NCBI RefSeq assembly: GCF_030384885.1
Contig: NZ_CP128613.1
Direction: 5' to 3' (one strand)
DNA: 64,000 bases
Origin: Escherichia coli
GTDB lineage: Bacteria > Pseudomonadota > Gammaproteobacteria > Enterobacterales > Enterobacteriaceae
Part shown: in pieces, positions 7,987 through 25,204 of the stretch
Layout of the letters: each line of letters begins with the position of its first letter
Position numbering within the stretch: position 1 is the first letter of the stretch
Notes under the pieces: generated by a model
What the model saw: the letters and a program-made list of their open reading frames with translations, nothing else
Database searches by the model: none
Told to the model about the DNA's origin: nothing
Made by a program: the position numbers and the translations under genes

Positions 7987-8532
7987 GTAAAAAGCCTTCC
8001 TCGTATCGTGCAGAACGCACAAAACTGTTCATTTTTCAATCACCAGAGATTCACGTCCCGAACGCACAAATAATCGCCTGAAAAAAATCACCTGCTACAA
8101 TGATGTTAAAAAATACGTAAATTTGTTGCTGCGTTTTTGTTATGGAATGACAAAAGCGTGTCACAGATCAAGAAAATACTCTCTTTTGGGGGGAGGAATC
8201 GACACAAATTCCTGTCAAAATAGACCCGTATTTTTTCCATTGCTTCACAACGGACACGATTCAACAACATCTAATTATCCTGGAGTCGTCAAGGATCTGG
8301 GGTGAAAGGGCATTAAATGCTAATGGTGTTGATATTATGTAAACTAATGTGAAGAAACTTTTGTTAAAGTTGACAAAAGGTTATAGAAAGGAGTAAAAGA
8401 CCACATCAATTAGCTGTATAAAAGAGTTTCTACAGTGATTGTAAGGTTTTTTTTATTCCTCCCCATGAATCGATGTGGCGTCCATCTGCCGTGAAGAGCA
8501 GTGAATCTGGCGCTACTTTTGATGAGTAAGCA
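7987..8532 (+). promoter_or_regulatory. nuo operon promoter/leader region
   Basis: About 550 bp non-coding, AT-rich, immediately upstream of nuoA; individual sites not resolved by eye. Confidence 0.5.
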
Positions 8533-8976
8533 ATGAGTATGTCAACATCCACTGAAGTCATCGCTCATCACTGGGCATTCGCTATCTTTCTTATCGTTGC
8601 CATTGGCCTGTGTTGCCTGATGCTGGTAGGCGGTTGGTTTTTAGGCGGTCGCGCACGCGCGAGGTCGAAAAACGTTCCGTTTGAATCCGGTATCGACTCG
8701 GTCGGCTCCGCCCGCTTACGCCTGTCCGCCAAGTTTTATCTGGTGGCCATGTTCTTCGTTATCTTCGACGTTGAAGCGCTGTATCTGTTCGCATGGTCAA
8801 CTTCTATCCGCGAAAGCGGCTGGGTAGGCTTTGTGGAAGCTGCAATTTTTATTTTTGTGTTACTGGCAGGTCTGGTTTATCTGGTGCGTATTGGCGCGCT
8901 GGACTGGACGCCCGCGCGTTCACGCCGCGAGCGTATGAACCCGGAAACGAACAGTATCGCTAATCGTCAACGCTAA
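8533..8976 (+). CDS. nuoA: NADH-quinone oxidoreductase subunit A
   Basis: 147-aa membrane protein, first gene of the nuo cluster. Confidence 0.95.
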
Positions 8977-8991
8977 CCGCGAGGCATTAAG

Positions 8992-9654
8992 ATGGATTAT
9001 ACGCTCACCCGCATAGATCCCAACGGTGAGAACGACCGTTACCCCCTGCAAAAGCAGGAGATCGTAACCGACCCTCTGGAGCAAGAAGTTAACAAAAACG
9101 TGTTTATGGGCAAGCTCAATGACATGGTTAACTGGGGTCGTAAAAACTCAATTTGGCCGTATAACTTCGGTCTTTCCTGCTGTTACGTTGAGATGGTGAC
9201 TTCGTTTACCGCGGTGCATGACGTGGCACGTTTTGGCGCAGAAGTATTGCGTGCTTCGCCGCGTCAGGCTGACCTGATGGTGGTTGCAGGAACCTGCTTT
9301 ACCAAAATGGCACCGGTTATTCAGCGTCTGTATGACCAGATGCTGGAACCAAAATGGGTTATCTCAATGGGGGCCTGTGCCAACTCTGGCGGTATGTACG
9401 ATATTTATTCCGTTGTGCAGGGCGTCGATAAATTCATTCCGGTTGATGTGTATATCCCGGGCTGCCCGCCACGTCCTGAAGCGTACATGCAGGCATTGAT
9501 GCTGTTGCAGGAATCTATCGGCAAAGAACGTCGTCCGCTCTCATGGGTGGTTGGCGATCAGGGCGTTTATCGCGCCAACATGCAATCAGAGCGCGAACGC
9601 AAGCGCGGTGAACGCATTGCCGTTACCAACCTGCGTACACCTGACGAGATTTAA
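8992..9654 (+). CDS. nuoB: NADH-quinone oxidoreductase subunit B (N2 Fe-S cluster)
   Basis: 220 aa; conserved CCY...GxCxxxGG...CPP cysteine motifs. Confidence 0.95.
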
Positions 9655-9747
9655 TTTGCGCCTGTCGGCAAAGGGATTTTTCTTCGCTTATTCCTAAATC
9701 TATTTCGCGAAGCTTACTGCGCCGACAGTCACCACGGACCATTTGCA

Positions 9748-11550
9748 ATGGTGAACAATATGACCGACTTAACCGCGCAAGAACCCGCCTGGCAGACCCG
9801 CGATCATCTTGATGATCCGGTGATTGGCGAACTGCGCAACCGTTTTGGGCCGGATGCCTTTACTGTTCAGGCGACTCGCACCGGGGTTCCCGTTGTGTGG
9901 ATCAAGCGTGAACAATTACTGGAAGTGGGTGATTTCTTAAAGAAACTGCCGAAACCTTACGTCATGCTGTTTGACTTACACGGCATGGACGAACGTCTGC
10001 GCACACACCGCGAAGGGTTACCTGCCGCGGATTTTTCCGTTTTCTACCATCTGATTTCTATTGATCGTAACCGCGACATCATGCTGAAGGTGGCGCTGGC
10101 AGAAAACGACCTGCACGTACCGACCTTCACCAAGCTGTTCCCGAACGCTAACTGGTATGAGCGTGAAACCTGGGATCTGTTTGGCATTACTTTCGACGGT
10201 CACCCCAATTTGCGCCGCATCATGATGCCGCAAACCTGGAAAGGTCACCCGCTGCGTAAAGATTACCCGGCGCGCGCTACCGAATTCTCGCCGTTTGAGC
10301 TGACCAAAGCCAAACAGGATCTGGAGATGGAAGCCCTGACCTTCAAACCGGAAGAGTGGGGGATGAAGCGTGGCACCGAAAATGAAGACTTCATGTTCCT
10401 CAACCTCGGTCCGAACCACCCGTCGGCGCACGGTGCTTTCCGTATCGTTTTGCAACTCGATGGCGAAGAGATTGTCGACTGCGTACCAGACATCGGTTAC
10501 CACCATCGTGGTGCGGAGAAAATGGGCGAGCGCCAGTCATGGCACAGCTACATTCCGTATACCGACCGTATTGAATATCTCGGCGGCTGTGTTAACGAGA
10601 TGCCGTATGTACTGGCGGTAGAGAAACTGGCCGGGATCACCGTACCGGATCGCGTTAACGTCATTCGCGTAATGCTTTCTGAGCTGTTCCGCATCAACAG
10701 CCACCTGCTGTATATCTCGACCTTTATTCAGGACGTCGGCGCGATGACGCCAGTGTTCTTCGCCTTTACCGATCGTCAGAAAATTTACGATCTGGTGGAA
10801 GCAATCACTGGTTTCCGTATGCACCCGGCGTGGTTCCGTATTGGCGGCGTAGCGCACGACCTGCCGCGCGGCTGGGATCGCCTGCTGCGTGAGTTCCTCG
10901 ACTGGATGCCGAAACGTCTGGCGTCTTATGAGAAAGCGGCGCTGCAAAACACGATTCTGAAAGGCCGTTCCCAGGGCGTAGCCGCCTACGGCGCGAAAGA
11001 GGCGCTGGAGTGGGGCACCACTGGCGCGGGCCTGCGTGCTACCGGGATCGACTTCGATGTGCGTAAGGCGCGCCCTTATTCTGGCTATGAAAACTTCGAT
11101 TTTGAAATCCCGGTTGGTGGTGGTGTTTCTGACTGCTACACCCGCGTAATGCTGAAAGTGGAAGAATTGCGTCAGAGTCTGCGCATTCTTGAGCAGTGCC
11201 TCAACAACATGCCGGAAGGCCCGTTCAAAGCGGATCACCCGCTGACCACGCCGCCGCCGAAAGAGCGCACGTTGCAACATATCGAAACCCTGATCACCCA
11301 CTTCCTGCAAGTGTCGTGGGGGCCGGTGATGCCTGCCAATGAATCTTTCCAGATGATTGAGGCGACCAAAGGGATCAACAGTTACTACCTGACCAGCGAC
11401 GGCAGCACCATGAGTTATCGCACCCGTATCCGTACGCCGAGTTATGCGCATTTGCAGCAAATTCCGGCGGCGATCCGCGGCAGCCTGGTGTCTGACCTGA
11501 TTGTTTATCTGGGCAGTATCGATTTTGTTATGTCAGATGTGGACCGCTAA
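9748..11550 (+). CDS. nuoC: NADH-quinone oxidoreductase fused subunit C/D
   Basis: 600-aa ORF (or ~596 aa from ATG at 9760, MTDLTAQEP); N-terminal NuoC-like and C-terminal NuoD-like halves in one frame. Confidence 0.95.
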
Positions 11551-11552
11551 TT

Positions 11553-12053
11553 ATGCACGAGAATCAACAACCACAAACCGAGGCTTTTGAGCTGAGTGCG
11601 GCTGAGCGTGAAGCGATTGAGCACGAGATGCACCACTACGAAGACCCGCGTGCGGCGTCCATTGAAGCGCTGAAAATCGTTCAGAAACAGCGTGGATGGG
11701 TGCCAGACGGCGCGATCCACGCGATCGCTGACGTTCTGGGTATTCCCGCAAGTGATGTCGAAGGCGTGGCTACTTTCTACAGCCAGATCTTCCGCCAGCC
11801 GGTTGGTCGCCATGTGATCCGTTATTGCGACAGCGTGGTCTGTCACATTAACGGTTACCAGGGCATTCAGGCGGCGCTGGAGAAAAAACTGAACATCAAA
11901 CCAGGGCAAACGACGTTTGACGGTCGCTTTACGCTGCTGCCAACTTGCTGCCTGGGGAACTGCGACAAAGGGCCAAACATGATGATCGATGAGGACACTC
12001 ACGCGCATCTGACCCCGGAAGCGATTCCTGAACTGCTGGAGCGGTATAAATGA
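11553..12053 (+). CDS. nuoE: NADH-quinone oxidoreductase subunit E (2Fe-2S)
   Basis: 166 aa; cysteine ligands CDSVVC ... [10 protein letters not shown]. Confidence 0.95.
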
Positions 12054-13387
12054 AAAACATTATCCGTACTCCCGAAACGCATCCGCTGACCTGGCGTCTG
12101 CGTGATGACAAACAGCCAGTGTGGCTGGACGAATATCGCAGCAAAAACGGTTATGAAGGAGCGCGTAAGGCGCTGACCGGGCTGTCTCCGGACGAGATCG
12201 TCAATCAGGTTAAAGACGCTGGCCTGAAAGGGCGCGGCGGTGCGGGCTTCTCGACTGGCCTGAAATGGAGCCTGATGCCGAAAGACGAATCCATGAACAT
12301 CCGTTACCTGCTGTGTAACGCCGATGAAATGGAGCCGGGCACTTATAAAGACCGCCTGCTGATGGAGCAACTACCGCACCTGCTGGTGGAAGGTATGCTC
12401 ATCTCCGCATTTGCGCTGAAAGCTTACCGTGGCTACATCTTCTTGCGTGGCGAATATATCGAGGCGGCAGTGAATCTGCGCCGTGCCATTGCCGAAGCTA
12501 CCGAAGCAGGGCTGCTCGGCAAAAACATTATGGGAACAGGTTTCGATTTCGAACTGTTCGTCCATACCGGGGCAGGGCGCTACATCTGCGGGGAAGAAAC
12601 AGCGTTAATCAACTCCCTGGAAGGGCGTCGCGCTAACCCACGCTCGAAGCCCCCCTTCCCGGCAACCTCTGGCGTTTGGGGCAAACCGACCTGTGTCAAC
12701 AACGTCGAAACCCTGTGTAACGTTCCGGCGATCCTCGCTAACGGCGTGGAGTGGTATCAGAACATCTCGAAAAGCAAAGATGCTGGCACCAAGCTGATGG
12801 GCTTCTCCGGTCGGGTGAAAAATCCGGGTCTGTGGGAACTGCCGTTTGGCACCACCGCACGCGAGATCCTCGAAGATTACGCCGGTGGTATGCGTGACGG
12901 CCTGAAATTCAAAGCCTGGCAGCCAGGCGGCGCGGGCACCGACTTCCTGACCGAAGCGCACCTTGATCTGCCGATGGAATTCGAAAGTATCGGTAAAGCG
13001 GGCAGCCGTCTGGGTACGGCGCTGGCGATGGCGGTTGATCACGAGATCAACATGGTGTCGCTGGTACGAAACCTGGAAGAGTTTTTCGCCCGTGAGTCCT
13101 GCGGCTGGTGTACGCCGTGCCGTGATGGTCTGCCGTGGAGCGTGAAAATTCTGCGCGCGCTGGAGCGTGGCGAAGGTCAGCCGGGCGATATCGAAACACT
13201 TGAGCAACTGTGTCGATTCTTGGGTCCGGGTAAAACTTTCTGTGCCCACGCACCTGGTGCAGTGGAGCCGTTACAGAGCGCCATCAAATATTTCCGCGAA
13301 GAATTTGAGGCGGGAATCAAACAGCCGTTCAGCAATACCCATTTGATTAATGGGATTCAGCCGAACCTGCTGAAAGAGCGCTGGTAA
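12050..13387 (+). CDS. nuoF: NADH-quinone oxidoreductase subunit F (NADH/FMN binding, 4Fe-4S)
   Basis: 445 aa; glycine-rich [10 protein letters not shown] motif and C-terminal [10 protein letters not shown] cluster motif; 4-nt start/stop overlap with nuoE. Confidence 0.95.
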
Positions 13388-13439
13388 CCGAATTTCGATT
13401 AACGCTCAGTCTCTGACTGAGAAAACTGGAAGCATGCTA

Positions 13440-16166
13440 ATGGCTACAATTCATGTAGACGGCAAAGAATACGAGGTTAACGGAGCGGACAACCTGCTGG
13501 AAGCTTGTCTGTCTTTGGGCCTTGATATTCCTTACTTTTGCTGGCATCCGGCGCTGGGAAGCGTCGGTGCTTGCCGCCAGTGTGCGGTGAAGCAATACCA
13601 AAACGCGGAAGACACGCGTGGTCGCCTGGTTATGTCCTGTATGACACCGGCTTCCGATGGCACCTTTATTTCCATTGACGACGAAGAAGCGAAACAGTTC
13701 CGTGAAAGCGTGGTCGAGTGGTTGATGACCAACCACCCGCACGATTGTCCGGTATGTGAAGAGGGCGGTAACTGCCATCTTCAGGATATGACCGTGATGA
13801 CCGGACACAGCTTCCGTCGCTACCGTTTCACCAAACGTACCCACCGCAATCAGGATCTGGGGCCGTTCATCTCTCACGAAATGAACCGCTGCATCGCCTG
13901 CTACCGCTGCGTGCGTTACTACAAAGATTACGCTGACGGTACAGATCTGGGCGTTTACGGTGCACATGACAACGTCTACTTCGGTCGCCCGGAAGACGGC
14001 ACCCTTGAAAGCGAATTCTCCGGTAACCTGGTCGAAATTTGCCCGACCGGCGTATTCACCGACAAAACGCACTCCGAGCGTTATAACCGTAAATGGGATA
14101 TGCAGTTTGCGCCGAGCATCTGCCAGCAATGTTCCATCGGCTGTAACATCAGCCCTGGCGAGCGTTATGGCGAACTGCGTCGTATCGAAAACCGTTACAA
14201 CGGTACGGTAAACCACTACTTCCTCTGCGACCGTGGTCGTTTCGGTTATGGCTACGTCAACCTGAAAGACCGTCCGCGTCAGCCAGTACAGCGTCGTGGC
14301 GATGATTTCATTACCCTCAACGCCGAACAGGCAATGCAGGGCGCAGCAGATATTCTGCGTCAGTCGAAGAAAGTCATCGGCATCGGTTCTCCGCGTGCCA
14401 GCGTGGAAAGCAACTTTGCGCTACGTGAGCTGGTGGGTGAAGAAAACTTCTACACCGGTATCGCTCACGGTGAGCAGGAACGTCTGCAACTGGCGCTGAA
14501 AGTACTGCGTGAAGGCGGCATTTATACTCCGGCTCTGCGCGAAATCGAATCTTACGATGCGGTACTGGTGCTGGGCGAAGACGTTACCCAGACCGGCGCG
14601 CGCGTCGCGCTGGCAGTGCGTCAGGCGGTGAAAGGTAAAGCGCGCGAAATGGCAGCAGCACAGAAAGTGGCTGACTGGCAGATTGCGGCAATCCTCAACA
14701 TCGGTCAACGTGCGAAGCATCCGCTGTTTGTTACCAACGTTGATGATACCCGTCTGGATGATATCGCGGCGTGGACTTACCGCGCACCGGTTGAAGATCA
14801 GGCGCGTTTAGGTTTTGCCATCGCCCATGCGCTGGATAACTCTGCACCAGCGGTTGACGGTATCGAGCCTGAACTGCAAAGCAAAATCGACGTCATCGTG
14901 CAGGCACTGGCTGGTGCGAAGAAACCGTTAATTATCTCCGGGACGAACGCTGGTAGCGCTGAAGTGATTCAGGCTGCGGCTAACGTCGCGAAAGCCCTGA
15001 AAGGTCGCGGCGCTGACGTCGGTATCACCATGATTGCCCGCTCTGTCAACAGCATGGGGTTGGGCATTATGGGCGGCGGTTCGCTTGAAGAAGCGTTGAC
15101 CGAACTGGAAACAGGACGCGCCGACGCGGTGGTGGTGCTGGAGAACGATCTGCATCGTCACGCTTCCGCTACCCGCGTGAATGCTGCGCTGGCGAAAGCG
15201 CCGCTGGTGATGGTGGTTGACCATCAACGTACGGCGATCATGGAAAACGCCCATCTGGTGCTTTCCGCCGCCAGCTTTGCTGAAAGCGACGGTACGGTGA
15301 TCAACAACGAAGGCCGCGCCCAACGTTTCTTCCAGGTTTACGATCCGGCTTATTACGACAGCAAAACTGTGATGCTGGAAAGCTGGCGCTGGCTGCACTC
15401 GCTGCACAGCACCCTGCTGAGCCGTGAAGTGGACTGGACGCAGCTCGACCATGTGATTGACGCTGTTGTGGCGAAAATCCCGGAACTGGCAGGTATCAAA
15501 GATGCTGCGCCGGATGCGACATTCCGTATTCGTGGGCAGAAACTGGCCCGTGAGCCGCACCGTTACAGTGGTCGTACCGCCATGCGCGCCAACATCAGCG
15601 TTCATGAGCCGCGTCAGCCTCAGGATATTGACACCATGTTCACCTTCTCGATGGAGGGTAACAACCAGCCGACCGCGCACCGTTCGCAAGTGCCGTTTGC
15701 CTGGGCGCCGGGCTGGAACTCCCCGCAGGCGTGGAACAAATTCCAGGACGAAGTGGGCGGTAAACTGCGCTTTGGCGATCCGGGCGTGCGTCTGTTTGAA
15801 ACCAGCGAAAACGGTCTGGATTACTTCACCAGCGTACCGGCACGCTTCCAGCCGCAGGAAGGGAAATGGCGTATCGCGCCGTACTACCACCTGTTTGGCA
15901 GCGATGAATTGTCACAGCGTGCTCCGGTCTTCCAGAGCCGTATGCCGCAACCGTACATCAAACTCAACCCAGCGGATGCCGCGAAGTTGGGAGTGAACGC
16001 GGGTACACGCGTCTCCTTTAGTTACGATGGCAACACGGTCACGCTGCCGGTTGAAATCGCCGAAGGACTGACGGCAGGGCAGGTGGGCTTGCCGATGGGC
16101 ATGTCCGGTATTGCTCCGGTGCTGGCTGGCGCGCATCTTGAGGATCTCAAGGAGGCACAACAATGA
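13440..16166 (+). CDS. nuoG: NADH-quinone oxidoreductase subunit G
   Basis: About 908 aa from [11 protein letters not shown] (ORF track starts at 13434); N-terminal Fe-S cysteine clusters. Confidence 0.95.
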
Positions 16167-17140
16167 GTTGGATATCACCGGAACTGATTGAGATCCTGCT
16201 GACCATCCTCAAAGCGGTGGTGATCCTGCTGGTGGTTGTCACCTGCGGGGCATTCATGAGCTTTGGCGAACGTCGCCTGCTGGGTCTGTTCCAGAACCGT
16301 TACGGACCTAACCGTGTTGGCTGGGGCGGTTCGCTCCAGCTGGTCGCGGACATGATCAAAATGTTCTTTAAAGAAGACTGGATCCCGAAATTCTCGGATC
16401 GCGTCATCTTTACCCTGGCACCGATGATTGCCTTTACCTCGCTGCTGCTGGCCTTTGCGATTGTGCCAGTCAGTCCGGGTTGGGTAGTTGCCGACCTGAA
16501 CATCGGGATTTTGTTCTTCCTGATGATGGCAGGTCTGGCGGTTTACGCGGTGCTGTTTGCGGGCTGGTCAAGTAACAACAAATACTCGCTGCTGGGTGCG
16601 ATGCGTGCTTCTGCGCAGACCCTGAGCTACGAAGTGTTCCTCGGGCTTTCCCTGATGGGCGTGGTGGCGCAGGCCGGTTCATTCAACATGACCGACATCG
16701 TTAACAGCCAGGCGCACGTGTGGAACGTCATCCCGCAATTCTTTGGTTTTATTACCTTTGCCATCGCGGGCGTGGCGGTGTGTCACCGTCACCCGTTTGA
16801 CCAGCCGGAAGCCGAGCAGGAACTGGCGGATGGTTACCACATTGAATATTCCGGCATGAAGTTCGGTCTGTTCTTCGTGGGCGAATACATCGGGATTGTG
16901 ACCATCTCCGCATTGATGGTGACGCTGTTCTTCGGTGGCTGGCAAGGCCCGTTCTTACCGCCATTCATCTGGTTCGCGCTGAAAACCGCGTTCTTTATGA
17001 TGATGTTCATTTTGATTCGTGCGTCGTTACCGCGTCCGCGTTATGACCAGGTAATGTCCTTCGGCTGGAAAATCTGCCTGCCGCTGACGCTGATCAACTT
17101 GCTGGTAACGGCGGCTGTCATTCTCTGGCAGGCGCAATAA
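16163..17140 (+). CDS. nuoH: NADH-quinone oxidoreductase subunit H (membrane)
   Basis: 325-aa polytopic membrane protein; 4-nt overlap with nuoG. Confidence 0.95.
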
Positions 17141-17154
17141 GGGGCACTAAGACC

Positions 17155-17697
17155 ATGACCTTAAAAGAATTGTTAGTAGGTTTCGGCACCCAGGTTCGTA
17201 GTATCTGGATGATCGGCCTGCACGCGTTCGCCAAACGCGAAACGCGAATGTACCCGGAAGAGCCGGTCTATCTGCCGCCCCGTTATCGTGGTCGCATCGT
17301 TCTGACCCGCGACCCGGACGGCGAAGAGCGTTGCGTAGCCTGTAACCTCTGCGCGGTCGCCTGCCCGGTCGGCTGTATCTCGCTGCAAAAAGCAGAAACC
17401 AAAGACGGTCGCTGGTATCCGGAATTTTTCCGCATCAACTTCTCACGCTGCATTTTCTGTGGTCTGTGCGAAGAAGCCTGTCCGACGACGGCGATTCAGT
17501 TAACCCCGGATTTCGAAATGGGGGAATACAAGCGCCAGGATCTGGTTTATGAGAAAGAGGATCTGCTGATCTCCGGTCCGGGCAAATACCCGGAATATAA
17601 CTTCTACCGGATGGCAGGTATGGCAATCGACGGCAAAGATAAGGGCGAAGCAGAGAACGAAGCCAAGCCTATCGACGTCAAGAGCCTGTTACCGTAA
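17155..17697 (+). CDS. nuoI: NADH-quinone oxidoreductase subunit I (2x 4Fe-4S ferredoxin)
   Basis: 180 aa; two CxxCxxCxxxCP motifs ([12 protein letters not shown] and [12 protein letters not shown]). Confidence 0.95.
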
Positions 17698-17708
17698 GGA
17701 GAGGGGCA

Positions 17709-18263
17709 ATGGAGTTCGCTTTTTATATCTGTGGCCTGATAGCCATACTTGCGACCTTGCGAGTGATCACCCATACCAATCCGGTACATGCATTGCTGTA
17801 CCTGATTATTTCGCTGCTGGCGATTTCCGGGGTGTTCTTCTCACTGGGCGCTTACTTCGCCGGTGCGCTGGAAATTATCGTCTACGCGGGTGCCATTATG
17901 GTGCTGTTCGTGTTCGTGGTGATGATGCTCAACCTGGGCGGTTCGGAAATCGAACAGGAACGCCAGTGGCTGAAACCGCAGGTGTGGATTGGTCCGGCAA
18001 TTTTGTCAGCCATCATGCTGGTGGTGATTGTTTACGCCATTCTCGGTGTTAACGATCAGGGTATCGACGGTACGCCAATCAGTGCTAAAGCAGTGGGTAT
18101 TACGCTGTTCGGGCCTTACGTACTGGCGGTGGAACTGGCTTCTATGCTGCTGCTGGCTGGTCTGGTTGTGGCCTTCCACGTCGGTCGTGAAGAGCGTGCG
18201 GGTGAAGTGCTGAGCAATCGTAAAGACGACAGCGCGAAAAGAAAAACGGAGGAGCACGCATGA
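17709..18263 (+). CDS. nuoJ: NADH-quinone oxidoreductase subunit J
   Basis: 184-aa membrane protein in conserved position. Confidence 0.95.
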
Positions 18264-18562
18264 TCCCCTTACAACATGGACTGATCCTCGCGGCAATCTT
18301 ATTCGTTCTTGGCTTAACCGGTCTGGTTATCCGTCGCAATCTGCTTTTTATGCTGATTGGTCTGGAAATCATGATTAACGCCTCTGCGCTGGCCTTTGTG
18401 GTCGCCGGAAGCTACTGGGGCCAGACCGACGGTCAGGTGATGTACATTCTCGCCATCAGCCTCGCGGCGGCGGAAGCGAGTATCGGCCTTGCGCTGCTGC
18501 TGCAACTTCACCGTCGTCGCCAGAACCTGAACATCGATTCAGTAAGTGAGATGCGCGGATGA
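18260..18562 (+). CDS. nuoK: NADH-quinone oxidoreductase subunit K
   Basis: 100-aa membrane protein; overlaps nuoJ and nuoL by 4 nt. Confidence 0.95.
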
Positions 18563-20400
18563 ACATGCTTGCCTTAACCATTATTTTGCCATTGATTGGC
18601 TTCGTCTTGCTGGCGTTCTCCCGTGGGCGCTGGTCTGAAAACGTCTCAGCGATCGTGGGCGTAGGCTCTGTGGGCCTGGCGGCGCTGGTAACCGCCTTTA
18701 TTGGCGTCGATTTTTTCGCTAACGGCGAGCAGGCATACAGCCAGCCGCTGTGGACGTGGATGTCGGTAGGCGACTTTAATATCGGTTTCAATCTGGTGCT
18801 GGACGGCCTGTCGCTGACCATGCTCTCGGTGGTCACCGGTGTCGGTTTCCTTATTCACATGTACGCCTCCTGGTACATGCGTGGTGAAGAGGGCTACTCT
18901 CGCTTCTTCGCCTACACCAACCTGTTCATCGCCAGCATGGTGGTTCTGGTTCTTGCCGACAACCTGCTGCTGATGTACCTCGGCTGGGAAGGCGTTGGCC
19001 TGTGCTCCTATCTGTTGATCGGTTTCTATTACACCGATCCGAAGAATGGCGCAGCGGCAATGAAAGCGTTTGTCGTGACCCGTGTGGGTGACGTGTTCCT
19101 CGCTTTCGCGCTGTTCATTCTCTACAACGAACTGGGCACCCTGAACTTCCGTGAAATGGTGGAACTGGCACCCGCGCACTTTGCTGACGGCAATAACATG
19201 CTGATGTGGGCGACGCTGATGCTGCTGGGCGGTGCGGTTGGTAAATCTGCGCAGCTACCGTTGCAGACATGGCTTGCCGACGCGATGGCGGGCCCGACGC
19301 CTGTCTCCGCGCTGATCCACGCCGCAACGATGGTAACCGCGGGTGTCTACCTGATCGCCCGTACCCACGGCCTGTTCCTGATGACGCCAGAAGTTCTGCA
19401 TCTGGTGGGTATTGTCGGGGCAGTGACGTTGCTGCTGGCCGGTTTTGCCGCGCTGGTACAGACCGACATCAAACGTGTTCTCGCTTACTCCACCATGAGC
19501 CAGATTGGCTACATGTTCCTTGCGCTTGGCGTACAGGCATGGGATGCGGCGATTTTCCACTTGATGACCCACGCGTTCTTTAAAGCGCTGCTGTTCCTGG
19601 CATCCGGTTCCGTCATTCTGGCCTGCCATCACGAACAGAACATCTTCAAGATGGGCGGTCTGCGTAAATCTATTCCGCTGGTTTATCTCTGCTTCCTGGT
19701 GGGTGGTGCAGCACTGTCGGCACTTCCGCTGGTTACTGCGGGCTTCTTCAGTAAGGATGAGATCCTCGCCGGTGCGATGGCGAATGGTCATATCAATCTG
19801 ATGGTGGCAGGTCTGGTCGGTGCGTTTATGACCTCGCTCTACACCTTCCGTATGATTTTCATCGTCTTCCATGGGAAAGAACAAATTCACGCTCACGCCG
19901 TGAAAGGGATTACTCACAGCCTGCCGCTGATTGTGTTGCTGATCCTTTCCACCTTCGTTGGCGCACTGATTGTACCGCCGCTGCAGGGCGTGCTTCCGCA
20001 AACTACGGAACTGGCGCACGGCAGCATGTTGACCCTGGAAATTACCTCAGGCGTGGTCGCGGTGGTCGGCATTCTGCTGGCAGCCTGGCTGTGGCTGGGT
20101 AAACGTACTCTGGTGACCTCCATCGCCAACAGTGCGCCGGGCCGTCTGCTGGGTACCTGGTGGTACAACGCCTGGGGCTTTGACTGGCTGTACGACAAAG
20201 TGTTCGTTAAGCCATTCCTGGGTATTGCCTGGTTACTGAAACGCGATCCGCTGAACTCAATGATGAACATCCCGGCTGTCCTTTCCCGCTTTGCAGGTAA
20301 AGGTCTGCTGTTAAGCGAGAACGGTTATCTGCGCTGGTATGTGGCATCCATGAGCATCGGTGCGGTCGTGGTGCTGGCACTGTTGATGGTACTGCGTTGA
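18559..20400 (+). CDS. nuoL: NADH-quinone oxidoreductase subunit L (antiporter-like)
   Basis: 613-aa polytopic membrane protein. Confidence 0.95.
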
Positions 20401-20630
20401 GTTGTTGGCTGAGTGAATATACCCGGCGTTGCGCCGGGTCTGTGAACTAAGAATAAATTTTAGGTAACTGTTCCTGAAGTACAGGCGTCATCGGCGAAGT
20501 CAGACCGGATACCGCCAGCGCACAGCAACCGGAGCGTACTTAAGTACGTGAGGATTGCGAGCACTGCCGGGATTCGGGCTGGCAAGTGAGATAGCCTGAG
20601 CAGGAGTAAATATAAGGGACATACTTAGCT

Positions 20631-22160
20631 ATGTTATTACCCTGGTTAATACTAATCCCCTTTATCGGCGGCTTCTTGTGCTGGCAGACCGAACGCTTTG
20701 GCGTCAAGGTGCCACGCTGGATCGCGCTGATCACCATGGGATTGACGCTGGCGCTGTCGCTGCAACTGTGGTTGCAGGGCGGTTATTCACTGACGCAATC
20801 TGCCGGAATTCCGCAGTGGCAGTCTGAATTCGACATGCCGTGGATCCCGCGTTTTGGTATCTCTATTCATCTCGCCATTGATGGTCTGTCGCTGCTGATG
20901 GTCGTTCTGACCGGTCTGCTCGGCGTGCTGGCGGTACTTTGTTCGTGGAAAGAGATCGAAAAATATCAGGGCTTCTTCCACCTCAACCTGATGTGGATCC
21001 TGGGCGGCGTTATCGGCGTGTTCCTTGCCATCGACATGTTCCTGTTCTTCTTCTTCTGGGAAATGATGCTGGTGCCGATGTACTTCCTGATCGCACTGTG
21101 GGGGCATAAAGCTTCTGACGGTAAAACGCGTATCACGGCGGCAACCAAGTTCTTCATTTACACCCAGGCGAGTGGTCTGGTGATGTTGATTGCTATCCTG
21201 GCGCTGGTTTTTGTTCACTACAATGCGACCGGCGTCTGGACCTTCAATTATGAAGAGCTGCTGAATACGCCGATGTCTAACGGCGTGGAATACCTGCTGA
21301 TGCTGGGCTTCTTCATCGCCTTCGCAGTGAAAATGCCGGTGGTTCCGCTGCATGGCTGGCTGCCGGATGCGCACTCTCAGGCACCGACTGCCGGTTCCGT
21401 TGACCTCGCGGGGATCTTGCTGAAAACCGCCGCTTACGGTTTGCTGCGTTTCTCTCTGCCACTGTTTCCGAACGCGTCGGCAGAGTTCGCGCCAATCGCC
21501 ATGTGGTTGGGTGTTATCGGCATCTTCTACGGTGCGTGGATGGCCTTCGCCCAGACCGATATCAAACGTCTGATCGCCTACACCTCGGTTTCCCACATGG
21601 GCTTCGTGCTGATTGCTATCTACACCGGCAGCCAGTTGGCCTACCAGGGCGCGGTCATTCAGATGATTGCTCACGGCTTGTCGGCGGCGGGTCTGTTTAT
21701 TCTCTGCGGTCAGCTCTATGAGCGTATCCACACCCGCGATATGCGCATGATGGGCGGTCTGTGGAGCAAGATGAAATGGCTGCCAGCACTGTCACTGTTC
21801 TTTGCGGTGGCAACGCTTGGGATGCCGGGCACCGGTAACTTCGTCGGCGAATTTATGATTCTGTTCGGCAGCTTCCAGGTTGTCCCGGTGATTACCGTTA
21901 TCTCTACCTTTGGGCTGGTCTTTGCATCTGTTTATTCGCTGGCGATGCTTCATCGCGCTTACTTCGGTAAAGCGAAAAGCCAGATTGCCAGCCAGGAACT
22001 GCCAGGGATGTCGCTGCGTGAGCTGTTTATGATCCTGTTGCTGGTGGTGCTGCTGGTACTGCTGGGCTTCTATCCGCAGCCGATTCTGGATACCTCGCAC
22101 TCCGCGATTGGCAATATCCAGCAGTGGTTTGTTAATTCCGTTACTACTACAAGGCCGTAA
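20631..22160 (+). CDS. nuoM: NADH-quinone oxidoreductase subunit M (antiporter-like)
   Basis: 509-aa polytopic membrane protein. Confidence 0.95.
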   Translation: MLLPWLILIPFIGGFLCWQTERFGVKVPRWIALITMGLTLALSLQLWLQGGYSLTQSAGIPQWQSEFDMPWIPRFGISIHLAIDGLSLLMVVLTGLLGVLAVLCSWKEIEKYQGFFHLNLMWILGGVIGVFLAIDMFLFFFFWEMMLVPMYFLIALWGHKASDGKTRITAATKFFIYTQASGLVMLIAILALVFVHYNATGVWTFNYEELLNTPMSNGVEYLLMLGFFIAFAVKMPVVPLHGWLPDAHSQAPTAGSVDLAGILLKTAAYGLLRFSLPLFPNASAEFAPIAMWLGVIGIFYGAWMAFAQTDIKRLIAYTSVSHMGFVLIAIYTGSQLAYQGAVIQMIAHGLSAAGLFILCGQLYERIHTRDMRMMGGLWSKMKWLPALSLFFAVATLGMPGTGNFVGEFMILFGSFQVVPVITVISTFGLVFASVYSLAMLHRAYFGKAKSQIASQELPGMSLRELFMILLLVVLLVLLGFYPQPILDTSHSAIGNIQQWFVNSVTTTRP

Positions 22161-22166
22161 ATCGCC

Positions 22167-23624
22167 ATGACAATAACTCCACAAAACCTGATCGCACTGC
22201 TACCGTTGCTGATCGTCGGCTTGACGGTGGTGGTTGTGATGCTCTCCATTGCGTGGCGACGCAATCATTTCCTCAACGCTACGCTCTCGGTTATTGGGCT
22301 TAACGCGGCGCTGGTTTCGCTCTGGTTTGTCGGCCAGGCGGGCGCTATGGACGTTACGCCGCTGATGCGCGTTGATGGTTTCGCCATGCTTTACACTGGG
22401 CTTGTATTGTTGGCGAGCCTCGCCACCTGTACTTTCGCCTACCCGTGGCTTGAAGGCTATAACGACAACAAGGATGAGTTCTACCTGTTGGTGTTAATTG
22501 CCGCGCTGGGCGGGATCCTGCTGGCGAATGCCAATCACCTGGCGTCTCTGTTCCTCGGTATTGAACTGATCTCTCTGCCGCTGTTTGGCCTGGTCGGTTA
22601 CGCTTTCCGCCAGAAACGTTCGCTGGAAGCCAGTATCAAATACACCATCCTTTCTGCTGCAGCATCTTCTTTCCTGCTGTTTGGTATGGCACTGGTGTAC
22701 GCGCAGTCTGGCGACCTGTCATTTGTTGCACTGGGTAAAAACCTCGGCGACGGCATGCTCAACGAGCCGCTGTTACTGGCAGGTTTTGGCCTGATGATTG
22801 TCGGCCTCGGCTTCAAGCTCTCTCTGGTGCCGTTCCACCTGTGGACGCCAGACGTATACCAGGGCGCGCCTGCGCCAGTTTCTACCTTCCTGGCGACGGC
22901 GAGCAAAATCGCTATCTTCGGCGTGGTGATGCGTCTGTTCCTTTACGCACCAGTGGGTGACAGCGAAGCGATTCGCGTGGTGCTGGCGATTATCGCCTTT
23001 GCCTCTATCATCTTCGGTAACCTGATGGCACTGAGCCAGACCAACATTAAACGTCTGCTCGGCTACTCGTCTATCTCTCACCTCGGCTATCTGCTGGTGG
23101 CGCTGATTGCGCTGCAAACCGGCGAGATGTCGATGGAAGCGGTAGGGGTTTACCTGGCCGGTTATCTGTTCAGCAGCCTCGGCGCATTTGGCGTAGTCAG
23201 CCTGATGTCCAGCCCGTACCGTGGCCCGGATGCTGATTCCCTGTTCTCTTACCGCGGTCTGTTCTGGCATCGTCCGATCCTCGCGGCAGTGATGACGGTG
23301 ATGATGCTGTCTCTGGCGGGTATCCCAATGACGCTGGGCTTTATCGGTAAGTTCTACGTGCTGGCGGTCGGTGTCCAGGCACACTTGTGGTGGCTGGTGG
23401 GTGCCGTGGTTGTCGGTTCGGCAATTGGCCTCTACTACTACCTGCGCGTAGCGGTGAGCTTATACCTGCACGCCCCAGAGCAACCGGGTCGCGACGCACC
23501 GTCAAACTGGCAGTACAGCGCGGGTGGTATCGTGGTGCTGATCTCTGCACTGTTGGTACTGGTGCTGGGTGTATGGCCGCAACCGCTGATTAGCATTGTT
23601 CGGTTAGCAATGCCGCTGATGTAA
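22167..23624 (+). CDS. nuoN: NADH-quinone oxidoreductase subunit N (antiporter-like)
   Basis: 485-aa polytopic membrane protein, last gene of the operon. Confidence 0.95.
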
Positions 23625-23640
23625 GGTTGAGTGTTGATGT

Positions 23641-23671
23641 AAAAAAACCGCCGATTTCGGCGGTTTTTTTA
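23641..23671. terminator. Bidirectional rho-independent terminator after nuoN
   Basis: AAAAAAA-ACCGCCG-ATTT-CGGCGGT-TTTTTTT: stem-loop flanked by an A-run and a T-run. Confidence 0.8.
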
Positions 23672-23766
23672 TGGTGTTAATTGTTGCTAATAAAAAGAAC
23701 ATATAAATCTATATCTGCGTCGAAGTATAATGATTCACTTCCTAATACAATACACAAGGAAAACCA

Positions 23767-24483
23767 ATGGAATGGTTAAGTGAGATTCGCACACTTCGGG
23801 AGAACGTACCTGTCGGTATCCAGGCTGCCAGGCGTTTGTTAGAGAAGACGGGTGGTGATGTTGATGAAGCCATTAAGTTGTTTCATATTGATCAAATCAA
23901 TATATTGACGGCAAAAGCAGACGTCAGTCATCAGGAAGCAGAGACTGTTCTGCTGGAGACAAACTATGATATTGCAGAAGCTCTACGGCGTATTGATGAA
24001 CAGCGCTATACACTGACGGAATTGATTTTGCGTAAAAATAAGGATACCGGAGATGCTTTAAGTAACATAGAATTAGCAATAGCATATGAATGGAATCTGA
24101 CATGCCAATTCTGGTTTGGTTTTAAGGCATTCCAGTCGCTACCTCCACAATTACAAGCCTTTATGCTGGTATGTGAATGGCGTAACTATTGGGGATGGGA
24201 AGGGCTGGATAGTGCGTTATATTATGAGATAGAAAATGTCCCCCAACAATTACAGGTAGTAGGCTTAGATGAAATGGCTGAAGTTATTGTTGTGGCGAGA
24301 AATCGTTATGATGAGTTAAGAGTACAAGGCAAAGACCATAATAACATCATTAAAGATGATAAATTTAAAAAATTTATGAAGCACTGTGAACAACTGGATA
24401 GTGAAGCCGACGCTATATTACTGCAATTTGTAAAGGATAATATTGAGATTTTCCCACGTCGCCACAACGGACACGATTTATAA
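23767..24483 (+). CDS. Hypothetical 238-aa protein (possibly YfbN) with two N-terminal UBA/EF-Ts-N-like helical motifs; low GC
   Basis: 238-aa ORF; length matches my recollection of YfbN but the local gene order does not clearly match what I remember, so no symbol is assigned. Confidence 0.6.
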   Translation: MEWLSEIRTLRENVPVGIQAARRLLEKTGGDVDEAIKLFHIDQINILTAKADVSHQEAETVLLETNYDIAEALRRIDEQRYTLTELILRKNKDTGDALSNIELAIAYEWNLTCQFWFGFKAFQSLPPQLQAFMLVCEWRNYWGWEGLDSALYYEIENVPQQLQVVGLDEMAEVIVVARNRYDELRVQGKDHNNIIKDDKFKKFMKHCEQLDSEADAILLQFVKDNIEIFPRRHNGHDL

Positions 24484-25053
24484 AAAATTATCCCAAAATT
24501 GAACAGGCTTTTTATCTGCCTGATAATTTCCAGGTAATGACAGGTTGAATTCCGTTTTTATCCAGGATGACAGATCGTTGCCAGCACAGATGATATCGCT
24601 GTTATATATTGAATACACGGGATTACCACCAGTATACGAAGATGTAGACATATATCGATGCTTATATAAAAGAATCAAAACTGGGCATTGGTTTGAGATT
24701 TTATCAAAATGATCTTTACGTGAATCTAAATTAAGTAGTTTTTCTCCCCATATATCAAGCCAAAAATTGTTTTTCATAACATCGTATAATATACCATCTA
24801 AAGGAATTTTTAATGTCTGTTTCACCTCGCGTTCCATTTTTCCAGAGTGTAGAGTTTGCCGCCAGTGAATAAAACCTTCAGTCGTTGGCAAAGCATTATG
24901 CAAAAATGCTTTACAATCGAGTGGAAAGCGGAAACTAAAAGTTTGCTCAATGGCAGTAATCTCGGTCTCACTCAAACCTGCATAGAATATAATTCCTTGA
25001 GCTTTTAATTTGTTAACCAGAAATGTGTAGTCCAATGCTTTTTTCAATTTCAT
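24478..25053 (-). CDS. Hypothetical 191-aa protein, SMI1/KNR4 (SUKH-1)-like; low GC
   Basis: 191-aa ORF; N-terminal motif LSETEITAIEQTFSFRFPLDCKAFLHNALP resembles the SUKH/SMI1-KNR4 signature; convergent with the 238-aa gene, 3' ends overlapping by 6 bp. Confidence 0.55.
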   Translation of the reverse strand: MKLKKALDYTFLVNKLKAQGIIFYAGLSETEITAIEQTFSFRFPLDCKAFLHNALPTTEGFIHWRQTLHSGKMEREVKQTLKIPLDGILYDVMKNNFWLDIWGEKLLNLDSRKDHFDKISNQCPVLILLYKHRYMSTSSYTGGNPVYSIYNSDIICAGNDLSSWIKTEFNLSLPGNYQADKKPVQFWDNFL

Positions 25054-25204
25054 TACAATAACCTTAAAGCCTTATACTACAGGTTGAAACGAAGCTAAAT
25101 CATTCGTAAGCTGGATAAAATATTTTTGCATTATATCCAGCTTTTAATACGAATGCTTCATTTAAACTTCCAGACATCCACTTTCCATTGTGCTACCAGC
25201 TGAA

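Follow-up and report, generated by a model that had tools for sequence, protein, structure and literature searches.

The Fused nuoCD Gene and the Stop/Start Overlaps of the nuo, men and arn Operons in an Escherichia coli Genome

Introduction

Are NuoC and NuoD made as one chain from the gene that lies between nuoB and nuoE in this E. coli genome, and do the overlapping junctions of the nuo, men and arn operons link the output of neighbouring genes? Knowledge of the fusion dates back to the characterisation of the E. coli nuo locus, and stop/start overlaps belong to the textbook architecture of operons. Both questions were addressed here on a stretch of 64,000 nucleotides, referred to as the window. 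It is very likely that the locus is a standard Enterobacteriaceae nuo operon with a fused nuoCD gene and with stop/start overlaps of the common kind, which would link the output of neighbours. There is nothing new in the fusion or in the overlaps, and the earlier note on this DNA was right to call them known biology, since the fused NuoCD is found in solved structures, in the K-12 annotation and in the literature. In practical terms the analysis serves as a quality check: nuo, men and arn are all intact operons, collinear with those of K-12. Three non-overlapping nuo spacers (nuoB-nuoCD, nuoF-nuoG and nuoL-nuoM) each hold a structured or repeated element, and the covarying hairpin between nuoB and nuoCD is the only element with some discovery potential.

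The nuo Operon

The window corresponds to positions 134845-198844 of E. coli strain 2013C-4282 (NZ_CP027579.1) with a single difference, a SNP at window position 45692 (A in the window, G in the record), and the RefSeq annotation of that record is therefore transferable to it. All annotated CDSs were re-translated in window coordinates and proved to be open, with ordinary start and stop codons. The nuo operon is complete and consists of 13 genes (A, B, CD, E, F, G, H, I, J, K, L, M, N), as had been claimed before for complex I, and nuoCD is placed between nuoB and nuoE in the same order as in K-12. All of them lie on the plus strand. The 147-aa nuoA (8533-8976) is followed after 15 nt by nuoB (8992-9654; 220 aa) and, after a further 93 nt, by nuoCD, from which nuoE (11553-12053) is separated by 2 nt (TAATTATG). 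An ATGA at 12050-12053 is shared by nuoE and nuoF (12050-13387); 52 nt downstream comes nuoG (13440-16166), 908 aa long as annotated and with another in-frame ATG at 13434, which overlaps nuoH (16163-17140) by the ATGA at 16163-16166. Gaps of 14 and 11 nt precede nuoI (17155-17697) and nuoJ (17709-18263), respectively, after which nuoK (18260-18562) and nuoL (18559-20400) each begin within an ATGA of the preceding gene (18260-18263 and 18559-18562). The last two genes are nuoM (20631-22160), 230 nt from nuoL, and nuoN (22167-23624), 6 nt from nuoM. Half of the nuo junctions, with gaps of 11-230 nt, are thus not closely coupled.

Alignment of the nuoA-nuoL DNA with K-12 covered 12,003 nt without gaps, at 97.4% identity, and the junction distances throughout nuo, men, arn and glp are identical in K-12 (for the nuoL-nuoM allele see below). 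The gene order and junction geometry of nuo, men and arn are those of K-12, which upholds the former description of these operons as intact and unrearranged. For comparison beyond E. coli, 80 Enterobacterales loci were taken from one scan of species-representative genomes; the set includes Escherichia, Salmonella, Citrobacter, Klebsiella, Enterobacter, Kosakonia, Cedecea, Buttiauxella, Serratia, Hafnia, Pectobacterium, Brenneria, Mixta and other genera. In the tblastn junction counts drawn from it three artefactual nuoA/B values of -675 were disregarded, and nuoM/N lay outside the retrieved flanks.

The Fused nuoCD Gene

Translation of the plus strand at 9748-11550, counted from the first ATG, runs through 600 sense codons to a terminal TAA without meeting an internal stop; by hand calculation, the chance of such a stop-free run is about (61/64)^600 = 3e-13. 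Two domains follow each other in this one reading frame: a NuoC-like (30 kDa) domain at 9895-10281 (residues 50-178), matched by Pfam PF00329 (Complex1_30kDa, E = 9e-43) and by TIGR01961, and then a NuoD-like (49 kDa) domain at 10390-11547 (residues 215-600), matched by NCBIfam TIGR01962 with 590 bits and, over residues 329-600, by Pfam PF00346 (Complex1_49kDa). The gap between the domain models is an in-frame, stop-free linker at 10282-10389 (residues ~179-214), which in the cryo-EM paper is described as 35 aa long with a helix touching NuoB. NuoC chains of species with split subunits cover NuoCD residues ~49-184, and the split NuoD homologues (Nqo4, those of Paracoccus and Mycobacterium, NDUFS2) cover only residues ~213-600; since they align to separate parts of NuoCD, the join can be equated with a linker of ~35 residues. 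Nqo4 and NDUFS2 can be aligned with the whole of the NuoD half (E about 1e-96 to 1e-103), T. thermophilus Nqo4 through its residues 23-409.

As a whole, the product scores 1218.2 bits against the NCBIfam equivalog for the fused C/D subunit (NF008728, cut-off 840), with residues 3-600 aligned to profile positions 2-598 of 598. A NuoB/C/D triple fusion (NF009808) was considered and rejected, with 710.5 bits against a cut-off of 1156 and only profile positions 220-791 matched; nuoB is, moreover, a separate gene upstream. Over residues 1-600 NuoCD is 100% identical to chain C of the E. coli complex I structure 7p61 (7p61_C), and in this and related entries that sequence is a single chain of the assembled complex. 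In a second E. coli set in the PDB (7awt, 7nyr and others) NuoCD is deposited as 596 aa, from residue 5. Open frame, Pfam and NCBIfam domains and identity to the solved chain all bear out the former claim that NuoC and NuoD are one polypeptide, and no evidence opposes the fusion. Fused NuoCD is almost confined to complex I of clade E (Spero et al., 2015, PMC4453560), with which both the fusion and the identity to the E. coli protein are consistent. In all likelihood, then, the ancestral nuoC and nuoD were joined in frame to give one polypeptide with a 30-kDa-type domain, a linker of ~35 residues and a 49-kDa-type quinone-site domain, and this joining leaves 13 genes for the 14 core subunits.

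One may ask if the single open reading frame could instead be an artefact of assembly or annotation, or a strain-specific loss of the stop between nuoC and nuoD. In many bacteria nuoC and nuoD are indeed two genes, with separate solved chains in, e.g., T. thermophilus (2fug_4) and the 8qby and 8e9g complexes, and no other support for this explanation was found. It is refuted by the E. coli genome matches, the PDB chains and the Enterobacterales loci, and its probability is negligible: a near-identical segment was found in 5423 of 5426 complete E. coli genomes with a 2.1-kb query around nuoCD (annotated as 'subunit C/D' among the matches listed), more than 25 PDB entries contain the fused chain, NCBIfam has a curated equivalog for it, and each of the 80 other species has a single full-length nuoCD match, a tblastn segment of at least 595 residues in 80/80 loci. 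The comparison with other Enterobacteriaceae, which the earlier note had suggested, thus finds the gene fused throughout. It could also be supposed that initiation inside the gene, e.g., at Met193 or Met206 in the linker, yields a NuoD-sized product as well, so that the fusion would not be obligatory. The linker does hold in-frame Met codons, and the rest of the idea is speculation; against it stand the cryo-EM models, which show one continuous chain, and the genetic separation of the two halves of NuoCD, by which complex I activity was abolished (PMC7050243). Internal initiation is therefore regarded as very improbable, though less so than the artefact.

The Start of nuoCD

Two in-frame ATGs are available to nuoCD, at 9748 and 9760. 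The figure of 600 aa, given previously for the protein, stands as the longest-ORF and PGAP call, whereas the K-12 RefSeq protein begins at the second ATG and has 596 aa, and it is the latter length that comparative data favour. The ATG of MTDLT (9760) is conserved in 80/80 Enterobacterales loci, and no other start is possible in Serratia, Hafnia, Brenneria, Pectobacterium, Mixta and relatives, where a stop 1-4 codons before this ATG closes the reading frame. Across 60 distinct Enterobacteriaceae sequences TTGCAATGGTGA is invariant, while the five bases after it, the would-be codons 3-4, vary non-synonymously (NN, RT, RI, KN, IT, NI). Such a combination fits a Shine-Dalgarno (SD) sequence (GGTGA, part of the extended anti-SD complement) with its spacer and not a coding sequence, and TTGCAATGGTGA indeed looks like the SD for the conserved ATG at 9760. 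The duplex energies of the SD failed to separate M1 from M5 (-3.2 vs. -2.8 kcal/mol), so the argument for 9760 rests on conservation. The real start of nuoCD is probably the ATG at 9760, with a product of 596 aa, and automated annotation probably extends NuoCD four codons too far. The existence of two residue numberings of NuoCD in the PDB follows from the two start calls.

Overlapping Junctions and Translational Coupling

Besides nuo, three sets of genes in the window contribute tight junctions. The genes menD-menH-menB-menC-menE occupy 31885-37496 on the plus strand (annotation re-translated), with overlaps at menD/H (ATGA, 33552-33555), menB/C (TAATG, sharing 35182) and menC/E (ATGA, 36141-36144) and a 14-nt gap at menH/B; menF (30501-31799) lies upstream of menD, at a distance of 85 nt. 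The genes arnB-C-A-D-T-E-F occupy 37866-45216 on the minus strand (likewise re-translated) and are joined by distances of +3 (arnB/C), -1 (arnC/A, 43105), -4 (arnA/D, 41123-41126), -1 (arnD/T, 40236), -4 (arnT/E, 38584-38587) and -1 (arnE/F, 38252). In total, 4-nt ATGA overlaps occur at nuoE/F, nuoG/H, nuoJ/K, nuoK/L, menD/H, menC/E, arnT/E, arnA/D and glpB/C, and 1-nt overlaps (TAATG or TGATG) at menB/C, arnD/T, arnC/A and arnE/F, while the glpA/B junction is -11 and the nearly abutting pairs are nuoCD/E (+2), arnB/C (+3), glpT/Q (+4) and nuoM/N (+6). Every junction that had previously been named as an overlap is correct by the re-translated coordinates, but the former list missed arnE/F, glpB/C and glpA/B. 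Overlaps make up 5/6 of the arn junctions, 3/5 of those from menF to menE and 4/12 of those in nuo, so the word 'pervasive', used in that connection, suits arn better than men or nuo.

How unusual is this density? Distances of -4 and -1 are the commonest between gene pairs (PMC10666635), and the window has 25 same-strand junctions between -20 and +20 nt, of which 13 are exactly -4 or -1 (uniform null, p = 3e-11). Junctions within -8 to +6 number 17 of 45, compared with 24% genome-wide in E. coli (707/2987; PMC10666635; p = 0.024). Tight junctions are thus moderately more frequent in the window than on average in the genome, as is expected for three long operons. Subunits of heteromeric complexes were also reported to be 4.5-fold enriched among short-distance pairs (PMC10666635).

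Stop/start overlaps (ATGA, TAATG, TGATG) are the commonest type of junction in bacterial operons. Such an overlap puts the downstream start codon, and often its SD too, inside the upstream gene, where a terminating ribosome could re-initiate or open the downstream site, and re-initiation of this kind would tend to link the output of adjacent genes. Geometry suited to coupling (a -4 or -1 overlap, or a distance of up to about +10 nt) is found in 13 pairs at -4 or -1 and in further pairs at +2, +3, +4 and +6. From these coordinates we infer that junctions of the window are coupled in this strain, which for nuo and arn is a reasonable, standard expectation. Among the junctions listed, coupling has been measured experimentally only for menD/H, in K-12, where ~60% of menH initiation is coupled and ~40% occurs de novo (Huber et al., 2019, PMC6728339). 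Over the corresponding fragment of the window (-99 to +30; 129 nt) there are 5 differences from K-12, all of them outside the ATGA.

The alternative is that genome compaction and the turnover of stop and start codons left the overlaps behind as neutral by-products, and that the downstream genes initiate independently from their own SD. Most overlapped starts in the window have such an SD: 9 of 14 form an anti-SD duplex of -5 kcal/mol or stronger, compared with 16% of random 20-mers from the window, and the duplexes of nuoH (-11.4 kcal/mol, inside nuoG), glpC and nuoK are all very strong. A simulation study is reported to have derived overlaps from start- and stop-codon turnover, which would also speak for a neutral origin. 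At the other five starts (arnE, arnD, arnT, menC and menH) the duplex energies revealed no recognisable SD, so that independent initiation is unlikely there. Experiments point in both directions, since bioBF, with a 4-nt overlap, showed no coupling and initiated de novo, and ~40% of menH initiation is likewise de novo, whereas four of the five native E. coli pairs tested were coupled (PMC6728339); the requirement for an SD in coupled pairs differs from pair to pair according to the literature. The cross-species comparison weighs further against neutrality. The distance is -4 in 71/71 loci at nuoG/H, in 62/62 at nuoJ/K and in 54/54 at nuoK/L, nuoE/F is -4 in 65 loci and -1 in 12 (77/77 for either), nuoCD/E is +2 in 73/78, and the 15-nt gap of nuoA/B recurs in 67/78, while the lengths of the F/G and L/M spacers vary widely across the same loci. 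Because three overlaps are invariant where these spacers vary freely, the exact overlap geometry must be constrained, and this speaks against an origin by neutral processes alone. The neutral explanation is therefore held to be rather unlikely, and the reading of the overlaps as sites of coupling is preferred.

A Hairpin in the nuoB-nuoCD Spacer

The junction of nuoB and nuoCD belongs to the peripheral arm and lacks close coupling. Its 93-nt spacer contains a three-part hairpin (9662-9728, plus strand; inner stem 9682-9687 paired with 9707-9712), which sits directly upstream of nuoCD and is ~67 nt long, and the length of the spacer itself (~90 nt) is conserved. The same fold, composed of an outer stem, a middle stem, a 5' bulge, an inner stem (CTTCGC/GCGAAG) and an AT-rich loop, is shared by 60/60 distinct Enterobacteriaceae spacers. 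In a MAFFT alignment made on sequence alone, the 17 pairs of the hairpin were paired in 88% of cases, compared with 31-51% for slid partners, and compensatory changes were present at 12/17 pairs; none of 500 shuffles reached the observed values. In the model-fitted alignment 91.7% were paired and 14/17 pairs had compensatory changes. From the MAFFT alignment RNAalifold derived nothing beyond the inner stem and a small SD-proximal helix; the outer and middle stems were taken from single-sequence folds and then checked by pair counting. A covariance model of the element (R1) matched only the nuoB-nuoCD spacer, once per locus, in 69 of 81 sources (1.6 Mb, both strands), and missed the spacer in Serratia, Hafnia, Pectobacterium, Brenneria and Erwiniaceae, except for two marginal matches. 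Hairpins are also visible by eye in the spacers of these groups, without homology being implied.

What could the hairpin be? Rfam contains no family for it, as judged from the window at gathering thresholds and from a permissive scan of 9600-9820, which returned only chance-level eukaryotic matches (E > 7). A canonical terminator was rejected, since a scan of 9400-10000 for the intrinsic-terminator consensus was empty. Genomic SELEX lists an 'internal promoter' of the RpoD holoenzyme between nuoB and nuoC (PMC3946193), for which the sigma-70 consensus found no match within 9400-10000. After the hairpin comes the invariant TTGCAATGGTGA, with a GGTG that could form local pairs (ACCATT/AATGGT or CACCA/TGGTG). 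A search of the full-text literature, to which the original operon papers were external, found no description of a nuoB-nuoC hairpin or stability element. The covariation suggests, tentatively, that the hairpin might be an undescribed cis-acting RNA element, which perhaps sets the translation of NuoCD or the processing or stability of the mRNA; this is a possibility to which we give less than even weight.

The nuoF-nuoG and nuoL-nuoM Spacers

The 52-nt spacer between nuoF and nuoG holds the nuoG RNA motif (Rfam RF01748; 13390-13432, plus strand), with 50.3 bits against a gathering score of 33. It ends 7 nt before the nuoG start, occupies the same position in the loci of Serratia, Pectobacterium, Hafnia and Citrobacter, and is the sole Rfam match across the whole window at gathering thresholds. 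A search for literature on the 'nuoG RNA' or 'nuoG motif' found none.

The nuoL-nuoM spacer (20401-20630, plus strand) contains a repeated intergenic element with its core at 20482-20599. This spacer is polymorphic, with 230 nt in the window vs. 163 nt in K-12, and the 230-nt allele is present in 723 of 5426 E. coli genomes. The core of ~118 nt recurs at 1-7 intergenic sites per E. coli genome with 76-80% identity, e.g., upstream of pheS, and folds as a long imperfect palindrome or hairpin (z = -4.85). The ERIC (IRU) repeat is an imperfect palindrome of ~127 bp with a central core, dispersed in intergenic sites. With the ERIC core the nuoL-nuoM element agrees at 18/21 positions, only slightly above shuffles. 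Elsewhere in the window, neither the hypothetical proteins after nuoN nor the 368-aa ORF at 61475-62581 had a significant Pfam match.

Comparison with Known Systems

The overlaps of the window are of the same co-directional ATGA and TAATG/TGATG types as the pairs studied by Huber et al. (2019, PMC6728339) and in the 2023 follow-up (PMC10666635), which are often subunits of one complex and include menD/H itself as a test pair. In the former study coupling was measured for menD/H and found to be partial, while coupling of the nuo and arn pairs is predicted from their coordinates. The K-12 NuoCD (b2286, NP_416789.2) occupies the same place between nuoB and nuoE, with the same nuo junction distances; the differences are that K-12 RefSeq and 7awt_D begin at the second ATG (596 aa) and the PGAP call and 7p61_C at the first (600 aa), and that K-12 carries another allele of the nuoL-nuoM spacer.

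The same two domains in the same order are known as Nqo5 (30 kDa) and Nqo4 (49 kDa) of Thermus, Paracoccus, Mycobacterium and mitochondria, where they are encoded by separate genes and form separate chains, whereas in the window a linker of ~35 aa joins C and D. A parallel fusion is found in HycE, subunit 5 of formate hydrogenlyase (7z0s_E), in which a NuoC-like N-terminal domain precedes a NuoD-like large-subunit domain; HycE contains a [NiFe] site and tolerates separation of its domains, whereas NuoCD holds no cofactor and does not tolerate it. C and D also form one polypeptide in the Aquifex-type 'NuoC/D 2' (7q5y_B) and in the NuoB/C/D fusion (NF009808).

Translation start of nuoCD

The fused nuoCD gene possesses two in-frame ATGs, at positions 9748 and 9760, and the second of them, which opens the reading MTDLT..., is kept in 80 of the 80 Enterobacterales species obtained in one scan of species-representative genomes. 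In more distant members of the order an in-frame stop is found 1–4 codons upstream of the MTDLT ATG. To judge from the sequence, the ATGGTGA located upstream of 9760 looks like the SD of this second ATG. The NuoCD product is probably of 596 aa, as in K-12, vs. the 600 aa given by the PGAP annotation and by the structure of E. coli complex I (PDB 7p61).

The nuo operon (8400–23700) shares with K-12 a DNA identity of 97.4% over nuoA-L and of 96.0% over nuoM-N. Among 5423 E. coli genomes, just 7 reach at least 99% identity over nuoCD, therefore the nuo allele of this strain is relatively uncommon; despite that, the NuoCD protein is identical to that of the solved structure. Across the entire 64 kb a sole difference separates the window from the RefSeq record NZ_CP027579.1 (strain 2013C-4282), namely A instead of G at position 45692, which lies inside ais and, in the annotated frame, changes GTT to ATT (Val to Ile).

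Structured elements in the nuo spacers

The nuoB-nuoCD spacer (9655–9747) contains a three-part hairpin at 9662–9728, on the 3′ side of which lies the invariant TTGCAATGGTGA (9743–9754). When about 60 Enterobacteriaceae species were compared, the hairpin showed strong covariation, with compensatory changes at 12 to 14 of the 17 base pairs, and its positions were paired in 88–92% of cases vs. 31–51% in slid controls, where the same positions were re-scored with shifted partners on the alignment. Rfam returned zero family matches for the hairpin, and the scan of the spacer found neither terminator nor promoter consensus. In a genomic-SELEX study an RNA-polymerase-binding "internal promoter" was placed in this spacer (PMC3946193).

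The 52-nt nuoF-nuoG spacer is mostly taken up by the nuoG RNA motif (Rfam RF01748; 13390–13432), scored at 50.3 bits vs. the gathering score of 33 and present at the equivalent position in Serratia, Pectobacterium, Hafnia, and Citrobacter loci. In nuoG itself a pair of in-frame ATGs lies close together, at 13434 and 13440.

The nuoL-nuoM spacer (20401–20630) is 230 nt long; its K-12 counterpart, REP-like in appearance, measures 163 nt. Of 5426 E. coli genomes, just 723 share the allele carried in the window. It comprises a GC hairpin (20422–20438) and a core of about 118 nt (20482–20599) that folds into a long imperfect palindrome. This core is a dispersed intergenic repeat, possibly ERIC/IRU-like, that occurs in 1–7 copies per genome at 76–80% identity, a copy upstream of pheS being one example.

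Other genes and comparison with K-12

A low-GC stretch between glpQ and inaA harbors a 368-aa ORF (61475–62581, minus strand), which is intact and labelled "frameshifted" by PGAP, and for which no Pfam family was matched; a LysR-type fragment lies nearby (63011–63253). The 3′ ends of pmrD (plus strand) and arnF (minus strand) overlap by 7 nt (37866–37872), and K-12 shows the same arrangement.

The region following nuoN (23625–25204) is variable and low in GC (~0.39). Whereas in K-12 yfbP and yfbO separate nuoN from yfbN, the window instead carries a gene for a YfbN-like protein of 238 aa (23767–24483) and, on the minus strand, a hypothetical gene of 191 aa (24478–25053), the product of which gave only a weak SUKH/SMI1 match; the two genes are convergent and their 3′ ends overlap by 6 nt (24478–24483). 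The yfbN-yfbM interval of K-12 is without a gene. Further, yfbK, which in K-12 is located between yfbL and elaD, is missing at 26783–27261, where the annotation shows only a 93-nt pseudogene fragment (27063–27155).
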